Shown: positions 14,554 through 18,553 of the stretch, piece by piece
Position numbering within the stretch: position 1 is the first letter of the stretch
Layout of the letters: every line of letters begins with the position of its first letter
Assembly: GCA_951406725.2 (NCBI GenBank)
Contig: OX597832.1
Coordinates: forward strand, 4,030,001-4,094,000
Length of the DNA: 64,000 nucleotides
Source of the DNA: Octopus vulgaris
Lineage: Eukaryota
Direction of reading: 5' to 3'
Notes under the pieces: model-generated
Database searches by the model: none
Told to the model about the DNA's origin: nothing
Seen by the model: the letters and a program-made list of their open reading frames with translations, nothing else
Made by a program: the position numbers and the translations under genes

Positions 14554-14931
14554 CTAAGTATATGTTAAGTATATGTGGTCAATAATGTTTATCACTCTTG
14601 CACTGCTTCTATTTCATATTTAAATTTATTCTTATGATGTATGCATTGTTGGGGCATACCAGCACATAGATTTCACACAGTATGCATATAAGCCATAGAC
14701 TGGTTTTGCAATTGACTTCTATTTTGGTTTTGATAAGTGATGTTGATAAGCCACAAAAATGGCAAAACATCAATGTCCATCACTGCTGAATGGGATTTAG
14801 GATGAGTTATCTTGTCTGTCCATGATTTCCAAGTGTTTTAATACCAGGCACTTTGAGGAAGTAATCTCCAACATGCCTAATCACAACCTATCTGCAAACA
14901 CACAAGCTGTGTACATCAAGTATGTATGGTT

Positions 14932-15826: not shown

Positions 15827-16219
15827 GTATATATATATTATATATAGTGAATCCAAACAAAGAAGAACAAACAAGAAAAACAATAACGCGAGGACATGGT
15901 ACAAGTACTGTATTATTGGACACTCAGGAAAGGAAGGAAAGAGGATTTAACATTTCAAGCAAAGCGCTTCTTCAGAAATAGAGGAAAGACCAAAGGAAGG
16001 GAAGACAGAGGAAGAAAATTGCCAACAATACACACATGGTTACATTATATTATATATATATATATTTGCCATCTAAATATGACTAACCACTAAGGGTGGA
16101 TGTTACTGTAGCTTGTAGCCCCAGGAGAACATCTTCTCCAGCTGGCTATTGACACACTTTCTGTGCCCTATCAGTATTTGCAAAGGGAGGTCATCTTTCC
16201 CTCGTCAACCTAAGTGATA

Positions 16220-16264
16220 CACACAGACTTCAGTTTCTGGGTATTGACCCATCATCAGCGCATG
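16220..16264 (-). ncRNA. Minimal type I hammerhead ribozyme
   Basis: Minus strand CATGCG-CTGATGA-TGGGT(CAAT)ACCCA-GAAA-C(TGAA)G-TC^TGTGTG. Complete CUGANGA/GAAA/GUC core, 5-bp stem II, 2-bp stem III, 6-bp stem I with three G.U pairs. Predicted cleavage between 16226 and 16225. Confidence 0.75.
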
Positions 16265-16273
16265 ACAATCACC

Positions 16274-17853
16274 TTTCTCCTTATTATAGGCACAATGGCT
16301 TGACTGAAGAGGGTACATATAACAAAAATACAGAAAGGATGATATGAAATGAAATATTAACAATGAATTAAATGAAATGGCTTACAAGCCCCCCCCCCCC
16401 AAAGCTCGCAGTTTCATTTACAATTATGGTTATACTATCTGGGGTGTTCATCAGTAATGTAAACGAGTAATTCATCTTGCTCTATAACTCCGGGCAAACT
16501 GTCATATCGAACATAATGCGCTATGGTTACAGCTGTATCTGAAAACAAATTCATTAATTTATTTACCGTCTCTTTTTCCATTATTACAGCCTTTATTTGC
16601 TTAGCTTATATCCTCGGGTTCAATTTCACTCTTGTTTGATTTTTCATTATCGCTAATTTTTTCTCAATTTCTTTATCTTCTGTGTACAATATTACAGCTC
16701 TGAGATTCTTTCCTTTTGGTCTTCCTCCTTCCTTGCATACTTTCAAACATTCTTCCACTTTTGCTGACCATTTTTCCCATTTCTCTCGCCTTGAACCTTC
16801 ACTCACTTTAGTTGCTGTATCTCTCCCTTTGTGTGTTCGATCCTCTACTCGTCAGCATACTTCTTTTTAGTTTTTTTCTTTTCTTGGTTTTGGGTGGTGA
16901 TTCCACCCGTATTAACTTTCTATCCTCTTTTTCTTCTGTTCTTTCCTCTTCTTTCTCCTTCACTAACTCGTCGTCACTTTCCATATTATCTCCTAAATCC
17001 TCTGTCAAAGCTCTTATTGCTTCCTCCAGTGTTATCTTCTTCTCTTGTATTTCTCCTTGAGGACACACATCCTCCATGTGCCCTCTGCTCTTACATTTAT
17101 AAAACACTGGAGGTCTCCCCTCCACCACAACTCTCAGTGGTGTCTCATTGGGGAACACCAACTCCTCCGGGATGTTATACAAATCTGGCATGGTTATGTG
17201 GACTAAAGCTTCCACTGCATAACCCCACTAGTTTATTTCATTCGAATTTTCCACCTTAAGTATGTCCACGTTCTCCTTGCAGTTGTAGATTATTGCAGCT
17301 ACTATTCTTTCGGTATCAAGTTCCAGTGGGATTTTGCTTATTCGTATCCTCACCACTCTTTTTCCACAATAACTAGGGAGTAAAACCCATTTTTCAGATC
17401 TCAACACTGTCGTTGCGTTCCTTTTCACTTCATCTTCATTTTCGAAGCGAACGTCTACCGTAGTGTATTTTCTACCTCTATTGTAGAAGGTAGTTCTTCC
17501 TTTAATTTCTTGTAGATATTTTTCAATCTCTGCTACTTCTATTCTTTTTGAGACCACATTCCATGTTCTGTATGTTATAGATTTTTTCTCCGCTTTTTTC
17601 ACTTCATCTCAGACAGTCTCCTTCCTTCTTGAAGCTGTCGTAGTATTTCCTCAGATTTTCTTTCTCGATAATTATTTCTTTTAACTGTAATTCGTTTGCA
17701 GCCAGGCTTTTGCCTGCTGCTCCCGCATAAGTCTGGGCTTGCATACCCAACAAAGAATTCAACAATTCAACACGACGCAACAGTTTTCAACAACAATAAT
17801 CAAAAAAATTCAACTCACAACCACAAATCCGAAAAACCGACACAAACACTTTC
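16274..17853 (-). mobile_element. Non-autonomous ORF1-only Tx1/L1-like (HAL1-like) element
   Basis: Flanked by a 16-bp direct repeat, gcgcatgacaatcacc (16258-16273) and gtgcacgacaatcacc (17854-17869), 14/16 identical with both differences CpG transitions. Contains 5'UTR, ORF1 and a short 3'UTR ending ...ataataaggagaaa. No endonuclease or RT. Confidence 0.7.
16367..17744 (-). pseudogene. Disrupted LINE ORF1/gag-like protein (about 450 aa) with a CCHC zinc-knuckle remnant
   Basis: Starts MQAQTYAGAAGK at 17744. Continues through track ORFs 17228-17602, 16808-17215 and 16606-16806, then an open stretch to about 16367, with two frameshifts and two in-frame stops. VEGRPPVFYKCKSRGHMEDVCP is CX2CX4HX4C with the first C changed to F, followed by an E/K-rich region. 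Confidence 0.75.
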
Positions 17854-18311
17854 GTGCACGACAATCACCGGTTTATGATGGAAGGGTCCCAATGCAAATA
17901 CATATATCCTTTTTCCAGTGACTTTTCATCACTGATCTTGAAAAAGTGTATACAAGCAATAATAAATCTCTGAACGAGGTATAGACAGTAACTGCACAAC
18001 AATGTGAAGTATATTTGCCATCTAAATATGGTTAACCACTAAGGGTGGATGTTACTGTAGTTCCAAGAGAACATCTTCTTCAGCTGGCTATTGACACACT
18101 ATCTGTGCGTATCACTTAGGTTGACGAGGGAAGGATGACCTCCCTTTGCAAATACCGATAGGGCACAGAAAGTGTGTCAATAACCAGCTGGAGATGTTCT
18201 CCTAGTGCTACAAGCTACAGTAACATCCACCCTTAGTGGTTAGCCATATTTAGATGGCAAATATACTTCACATTGTCATGCAGCTACTGTTTATACCTCG
18301 TTCAGAGATTT

Positions 18312-18362
<51 letters not shown>

Positions 18363-18451: not shown

Positions 18452-18553
18452 GTTTATTTGCCCATCCAAAGCCAGTTGGAGGATTAATACACCTTAAGGA
18501 GAGTGATGAATCAATAGAAAACTACATGACTCAACTCGATGAATTCCTGGAAG
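18452..18553 (+). CDS. ATP1B: Na+/K+-ATPase beta-subunit-like gene, internal coding exon (first one seen in the window)
   Basis: tttttctgtag acceptor and GTCAG donor, phase 1/1. Translates (G)LFAHPKPVGGLIHLKESDESIENYMTQLDEFLE, matching the PGL..P / LD.FL..Y region that follows the TM helix of P-type ATPase beta subunits. Splices in frame to the next exon. Confidence 0.85.

Follow-up and report, generated by a model that had tools for sequence, protein, structure and literature searches.

How does a unit that encodes nothing but a broken ORF1 (open reading frame 1) come to lie precisely against a hammerhead ribozyme? The question is raised by a locus in a stretch of 64,000 nucleotides (nt) from Octopus vulgaris (assembly GCA_951406725.2, contig OX597832.1, positions 4,030,001 to 4,094,000, forward strand; hereafter the window, in which position 1 is the first letter). 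A 1580-bp unit on the minus strand (16274–17853) is followed there by a type I hammerhead motif in the same sense. The answer that we regard as highly probable is that the unit belongs to a long-lived ORF1-only element, which is found mostly within a repeat of about 350 nt, in the 5′ arm of its hammerhead stem I, and is likely inserted by the endonuclease and reverse transcriptase (RT) of L1/Tx1-type long interspersed nuclear elements (LINEs) that use the same site. What is directly observed is how the family is built and which site it prefers, the duplications at its borders, its passage from one host subtype to another, ORF1 under selection, and LINEs that occupy the site and resemble the element at the 3′ end.

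The window unit comprises a TG-rich 5′ untranslated region (UTR), ORF1 and a short 3′ UTR, which has a 27-bp deletion and closes with AATAA(G)GA and a GAAA tail. ORF1 (16435–17744, minus strand; ATG at 17744, stop at 16437–16435) is its sole coding content. Compared with the intact 460-amino-acid (aa) protein P0001 of a relative (L028), it aligns in three pieces, at 83, 75 and 66%, and is interrupted by a frameshift near 17608, a stop at 17225–17227 and a break near 16850–16890. An earlier note, made from the letters of the window, described the unit as having neither endonuclease nor RT, and probes for ORF2 and for Penelope RT indeed found no match anywhere in the window. The CCHC knuckle that it reported has Phe in place of the first Cys in the window copy; the match to zf-CCHC is weak (E 0.32 in the window copy, E 0.0026 in intact P0001). 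The 16-bp direct repeat that it described is present: the 5′ copy (17854–17869, minus strand) is the 5′ arm of stem I of the host hammerhead, and the 3′ copy (16258–16273, minus strand) is the 5′ strand of stem I together with the first C of the core. The two mismatches between the copies are CpG-type changes with respect to the commonest empty site among 100 listed of 390.

A DNA search gave 292 candidates; 40 were scored, most of them near full length at 81–91%. Thirty-one copies are full length (1535–1756 bp), and none of these has a match to ORF2; this count leaves out L064 (another family) and L095m5163 (a duplicate of one long copy), both of which are in the element tree. In a tree of ORF1 from 34 stretches, 25 of the 26 rows labelled ORF1-only form one branch (Shimodaira–Hasegawa-like approximate likelihood ratio test, SH-aLRT, 96), apart from the ORF1s of eight LINEs. 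ORF1 is under purifying selection: the ratio of nonsynonymous to synonymous change (dN/dS) is 0.09–0.36 across 16 ORF1-only pairs (a seventeenth was saturated), with 0.24–0.36 between close copies and 0.09–0.24 between subfamilies, where dS reaches 2.6. Thus, the ORF2-free copies, the deep branch and the dN/dS values together indicate a long-standing ORF1-only radiation of several families and no one-off deletion.

The ORF1 protein of intact relatives has about 460 aa, with two predicted RRM folds, a CCHC knuckle and a charged C-terminal half. A model based on an alignment (predicted local distance difference test, pLDDT, 83) places two RRM-like domains ahead of the knuckle, with matches to RRM structures (Foldseek E 1e-4; Z up to 8.4, a middling value); the fold from a single sequence was uninformative (pLDDT 31). 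A protein search with ORF1 yielded one match among 7999 scored, an octopus CCHC protein, at 52%. The marks of target-primed insertion, i.e., duplications (8–21 bp on target, 15–20 bp off target) and 5′ truncation, are present in the family. The window unit is therefore a copy of an old non-LTR (LTR, long terminal repeat) family that encodes ORF1 only and resembles the mammalian HAL1 (half-L1).

Where do the other copies lie? The exact 23-mer at the 3′ end, common to several ORF1-only families, has 72 matches in the 2.8-Gb genome and none in the control. All 72 were examined and their flanks tabulated: 59 share one site, immediately 5′ of the hammerhead core. Behind 46 of these the core follows at 15–42 nt, behind three it is mutated, behind eight the stem I arm is followed by another element of the group, one has the arm only, and one has an interrupted host. 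The remaining ends comprise one at a different hammerhead-like repeat and 12 off target (the host label of L047 and the target label of L094 were set by hand). The pattern “AATAAAGA, then hammerhead” had 172 matches, as against nine in the control. Recurrent hammerhead flanks and an ORF1-only element that targets a ribozyme repeat, both of which the earlier note had put forward, are thus what the genome holds, and neither of the two findings that it had named as contrary, unrelated flanks elsewhere or a unique deletion among LINEs with ORF2, was encountered. The latter could be advanced as an explanation, in that the unit would be an ordinary LINE which lost an internal stretch and reached the ribozyme by chance; LINEs bearing ORF2 are indeed present at this site, and an internal deletion is seen in one of them, L185. 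In view of 31 full-length copies free of ORF2, a deep ORF1-only branch kept by purifying selection and the 59 ends out of 72 that share one site, we consider this extremely improbable.

Duplications on target have two ranges of start position, about −15 to −19 and −25 to −32 from the core, the range going with the short tail of the element subfamily; their ends lie between −21 and +1. Mapped insertions on target are all in the sense of the ribozyme, and the inner part of stem I is always restored. Different ORF1-only families also occur in head-to-tail pile-ups at one target arm (L062/L003/L096; L011/L097; L009/L095). Both L047 (ORF1-only) and L099 (a LINE) lie 5′ of another repeat, with a CTGACGA...GAAA motif around a long hairpin, which is a possible further ribozyme target.

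The earlier note offered an alternative, a composite unit in which a retrozyme carries an RNA-chaperone gene; as the whole explanation, this would mean that the gene was acquired a single time and that the unit then spread by the Penelope pathway. Among 595 pairs from 35 copies (L064, L012 and L006 left out), the elements are at least 90% alike in 112, and the hosts of these 112 pairs are at least 88% alike in 39, which favours the composite; mirror-image and duplication-free units, described below, also exist. However, the hosts are less than 75% alike in 48 of the same pairs, near-identical elements being found in hosts only 62–75% alike, and this shows repeated targeting. Moreover, junctions and duplication lengths differ, off-target copies carry their own duplications of 15–20 bp, and LINEs and diverse ORF1 families are stacked at a single site. 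Because the element moves between host subtypes and inserts off target with its own duplications, the composite is the wrong account of how it arose; as the whole explanation it is very unlikely, and it probably survives as a secondary route, to which the mirror units point.

The motif behind the element is a type I hammerhead with a short stem III (16214–16273, minus strand). It has the core CTGATGA (16258–16252), stem II (16251–16238), GAAA (16237–16234), GTC (16228–16226) and the 3′ strand of stem I (16225–16214), with predicted cleavage between 16226 and 16225; the layout of the type (core CUGANGA, GAAA, NUH, three stems) is thus present. The pairing was examined in 49 hammerheads that directly follow element ends, from eight host subtypes, instead of a set of 107 motifs which held chance matches. 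Stem I is 90.5% paired in these, dropping to 17–49% when the strands are slid by 1–3 nt; compensatory pairs occur at six of six stem I positions, and none of 1000 row shuffles matched the observed pairing, in a control that takes no account of relatedness. In 30 of the 49, the region of stem III is perfectly palindromic, which suggests a dimeric form, as is known from minimal hammerheads; the loop of stem III in the window copy is non-palindromic. Rfam gave no hammerhead match at the window site (E≤1) or in five related loci (E≤0.01), and the free-energy fold of the window hammerhead is unexceptional (z −1.5).

In empty sites, stem I is extended by a distal helix of about 30 bp, which insertion parts from the core, so that the duplication rebuilds only the inner 15 nt of the stem. 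The window hammerhead is also decayed, with G-U pairs derived from CpG, and keeps every core base. Given the CpG decay, the lost helix and the non-palindromic loop, “complete”, the word of the earlier note for the same-sense ribozyme behind the element, refers to the presence of all core bases and not to proven activity.

Does the ribozyme set the 3′ end that is copied, as the earlier note proposed? Reverse transcription starts 2–6 nt after AATAAAGA, about 45–65 nt upstream of the predicted cleavage site; ribozyme core or stem II sequence is found in none of 12 off-target ends; and host 5′ ends are not concentrated at the cut (two true junctions among 122 alignment ends listed). Cleavage as the definer of the copied 3′ end is not supported by the DNA, and appears doubtful. 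A broader version can be framed: RNA reading through the element would cleave itself about 50 nt past the element, the cleaved tail would be the functional 3′ end and possibly a guide that pairs with the target, and the wholeness of the ribozyme would be selected. The constant orientation and restored inner stem I fit this, as do the lack of a poly(A) tail, the host preferences that element subfamilies keep, the first bases at several off-target sites, which resemble the host arm, and three copies (L018, L021, L022) whose 5′ end carries 19–26 nt of an arm that stems from a different host site; internal priming on cleaved read-through RNA is possible, as read-through pairing is known for some site-specific LINEs. 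The missing core and stem II sequence at off-target ends and the missing peak of host 5′ ends speak against it, together with duplications that begin 15–32 nt before the core and not at the cleavage site, an AATAAA signal at the end of the element, and eight ends that precede another element instead of a ribozyme. On balance, use of the ribozyme by the element seems unlikely.

Which enzymes, then, could move an element without ORF2? An autonomous partner sharing the ends had been proposed as something to look for. Among 30 loci drawn from the “AATAAAGA, then hammerhead” matches, five have ORF2 just upstream of the site, and LINEs with both ORF1 and ORF2, with duplications and with a similar 3′ end, lie at the hammerhead arm in L178, L180, L182, L184 and L191. 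In L191, ORF2 is intact (1138 aa) and has the order APE, RT, zinc finger (Pfam Exo_endo_phos, RVT_1, zf-RVT). The closest solved structure to ORF2 of this type is human L1 ORF2p (E 3e-70, as against E 3e-22 for R2), and by homology the partner is a LINE of the L1/Tx1 group. Neither the 68 homologues nor the nine clusters of partner ORF2 included a named Tx1 reference; membership of the Tx1 clade in the strict sense, in which the RT would group with Xenopus Tx1L, Keno and Kibi, is a candidate assignment, with which the target-specific insertion into a repeat agrees. When LINE ends were sought by their own 3′ ends, the host arm came next in about 48 of 64 and 10 of 17 (counted by eye), with a pattern whose last letter excludes about a quarter of random flanks. 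The last 80 nt of the partner 3′ UTRs share the layout of the end of the element, seven of ten doing better than shuffles (at most 8 of 300), and two copies (L082 and L089) sit directly on a partner LINE. Full-length L1/Tx1-type LINEs are, on this comparison of ends and sites, the likely donors of enzymes in trans.

One further locus, L061, was rejected both as the autonomous partner and as a Penelope pseudo-LTR (pLTR): its ORF2 belongs to a separate abundant LINE within the 3′ part of another family, and its Penelope ORFs come from families whose ends are of another kind. L098–L127 (e.g. G000:C2:70644602-70646284) represent an L1/Tx1-type LINE of very high abundance (4348 candidates), which ends in AATAAAGAAATT; the same SINE-like (short interspersed nuclear element) repeat comes next in 28 of 29 other top copies, so that this LINE is apparently another site-specific family, with a target of its own. 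The 5′ junction of one off-target copy (L020) opens with at least 14 nt which we take to read like the 5′ end of U1 small nuclear RNA (snRNA), with no match in Rfam, and one partner LINE end (G000:C18:49051772-49051806) is followed by the same motif.

Insertion can then be pictured as follows. The element's own ORF1p would coat the element RNA; ORF2p of the partner would recognise the shared 3′ end (a TG-rich tract, a small hairpin and ATAATAAAGA), nick 15–32 nt upstream of the core and prime within a few nt of AATAAAGA; and a second nick would fall at about −17 to +1 of the core. With the second nick at this position, the duplication would regenerate the inner part of stem I and leave the downstream ribozyme motif whole, so that its intactness may follow from the nick positions as a side effect. 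Since the motif survives insertion, we propose that RNA of element plus host is sometimes re-copied by the pathway of the host repeat; such secondary copying would give duplication-free and mirror-image units that end in TA or TG runs.

The host repeat itself is non-coding, of about 350 nt, with a type I hammerhead, and occurs in partial tandems and with inverted arms; its period is 353 nt in L026. It thus has the sequence features by which non-LTR retrozymes are recognised (non-coding, 170–400 nt, type I hammerhead, tandem or partial tandem). There are at least eight subtypes, mutually 59–85% alike. The empty monomers that the earlier note had suggested seeking were found, at about 353 nt: family-1 host sites have 390 exact matches, and most of the 100 listed are empty. 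Family-1 host 3′ ends cluster at about 171–176 and 213–222 nt past the predicted cut, often against a microsatellite, and may mark fixed priming points of the repeat's own pathway. In the window, the part downstream of the element (16061–16273, minus strand) corresponds to monomer positions 1–213, at 94% to a natural monomer, and ends in a TA run; the upstream part (17856–18108, minus strand) runs from monomer position 108 to the target site, at 91%; and an inverted, 5′-truncated arm (18102–18316, plus strand) covers positions 47–264, at 93%, and also ends in a TA run. The host around the unit therefore has the mirror layout of Penelope type, both outer ends running into TA repeats. The element may have inserted into a pre-existing mirror or have been carried as part of the whole; the sequence fits either.

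Two classes of copies point to such carriage. Among 5′-truncated copies, a duplication is present in two of 16 on target, counted where the junction is visible and together with host or element sequence upstream, and in five of eight off target (Fisher p=0.02, on a classification by hand that leaves out the internally deleted L027 and L038, other subfamilies or families such as L132 and L156, and copies cut by the edge of a locus). In five mirror units (L041, L042, L071, L075, L086), two 3′ pieces of the element stand head to head, each followed by the hammerhead and 130–300 nt of host; there is no upstream host, and most of the units reach, or nearly reach, a microsatellite. Two of them, L071 and L075, have arms that are as alike in the element as in the host (94–96%). 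Inverted 5′-truncated copies and a bias to microsatellites are described as Penelope marks which are unseen in LINE insertion (PMC8557442). Re-copying of element-plus-host RNA by the Penelope-type pathway of the host is thus, judging from these structures, a fairly probable secondary route.

Several points weigh against the account of targeted insertion and secondary re-copying. Duplication-free truncated copies could also arise by deletion at the target site, and mirror units by fold-back of DNA. Twelve of the 72 ends are off target. Host labels are clustered on the element tree (20 changes, versus 34.5 when shuffled), and part of the spread is therefore with the host or subfamily-specific. 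Five of the ORF1-only labels in the ORF1 tree (L006, L069, L138, L145, L062) rest on less than 1.4 kb of downstream DNA. Three of ten partner 3′ UTRs do no better than shuffles. Finally, the ORF1s of the partners are homologous to that of the ORF1-only family at no more than 26–38% identity, so that none of these LINEs stands out as the specific donor.

An autonomous Penelope partner of the host repeat was not found, in a comparison with two Penelope families, of which five copies have their own ends unlike the host repeat, and in a search with one probe which gave no Penelope ORF within 1.5 kb of 20 empty sites. L198–L201 represent two Penelope families that are young and of high copy number, in which ORFs of 784 aa are intact (20734 candidates) and the ends are unlike those of the host repeat. 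A more far-reaching scheme is a system of three tiers: a retrozyme, LINEs that would seek out the arm of its ribozyme, and ORF1-only parasites of these LINEs that would do likewise, this arm being chosen because insertion leaves the ribozyme intact; the element would gain a route driven by Penelope, possibly by way of self-cleaved or circular RNA that carries the RNA-chaperone gene, and may find its targets through the cleaved read-through tail. We hold this scheme only tentatively, as possible rather than probable. If it were true, one passenger would be copied by two unrelated reverse transcriptases.

The earlier note knew of no description of such an arrangement, and no report of a LINE or an ORF1-only element that targets a hammerhead arm was found in a literature search that did not extend to Repbase Reports, subscription journals and supplements, where an octopus Tx1 entry with such a target could exist. 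The text seen of PMC13282606 has 13 L1-Tx1 families in its octopus table, and the words “ribozyme” and “HAL1” are absent from that text. The nearest relatives in arrangement are the Tx1-Mar LINEs and SINEU elements of crocodilians, i.e., a Tx1-group LINE and a non-autonomous passenger which share a target inside another transposon, with tandem insertions that sandwich the duplication, heads derived from U1 and 5′ extensions derived from the host. However, the passenger there is a SINE derived from snRNA and the target a DNA transposon, whereas the octopus passenger encodes ORF1 and the target is a ribozyme arm; furthermore, hitch-hiking was tested and rejected there, whereas here it appears to occur (PMC4494074). 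HAL1 of mammals is likewise a non-autonomous derivative of L1 that encodes ORF1p only (PMC5753468), but the octopus element has an ORF1 of RRM-RRM-CCHC type, no poly(A) tail and site-specific insertion; no site-specific HAL1 was found in the literature searched. HeT-A of Drosophila telomeres is also a site-restricted non-LTR element with Gag/ORF1 only, under selection and in head-to-tail arrays, and is thought to borrow Pol from TART or TAHRE; it joins chromosome ends, whereas the octopus element makes internal insertions of nick type with duplications (PMC5537684). Non-LTR retrozymes and Penelope pLTRs resemble the host repeat in being non-coding, of about 350 nt and with a type I hammerhead, and in their partial tandems, inverted 5′-truncated arms and microsatellite ends, but LINE or ORF1 cargo at the ribozyme is not described in the parts available of these papers (PMC7229834, PMC8557442, 10.64898/2026.07.22.740005).

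ORF1-only elements, target-specific LINEs of the L1/Tx1 group and hammerhead retrozymes, each known alone, are thus joined in one arrangement, which the literature searched did not describe. That one structural position is hit across hosts only 59–85% alike makes it a compact test of site choice by an APE-type endonuclease, or by pairing of read-through RNA; such site choice is relevant to tools for targeted insertion, and with L191 an unbroken ORF2 is at hand. That ORF1 is held by purifying selection in elements devoid of ORF2 has a bearing on the reason for its retention in half-LINEs. A natural marker for the cargo capacity of the retrozyme/Penelope pathway, the mechanism of which is called unresolved in the reviewed papers, is provided by the mirror units.

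Elsewhere in the window, a degenerate hammerhead-like motif unrelated to the host repeat lies at 14725–14800 (plus strand; Rfam HH9, 36 bits versus a gathering score of 52). Three other sequencing runs, with three organism labels, contain related multi-copy sequence and no piece spanning the window locus. A stretch beyond the inverted host arm (18452–18553, plus strand) is exon-like, with AG/GT borders, and a contig of a presumed RNA run stops matching at its 5′ border; if this is an exon, the window element would sit in an intron, antisense to that gene.
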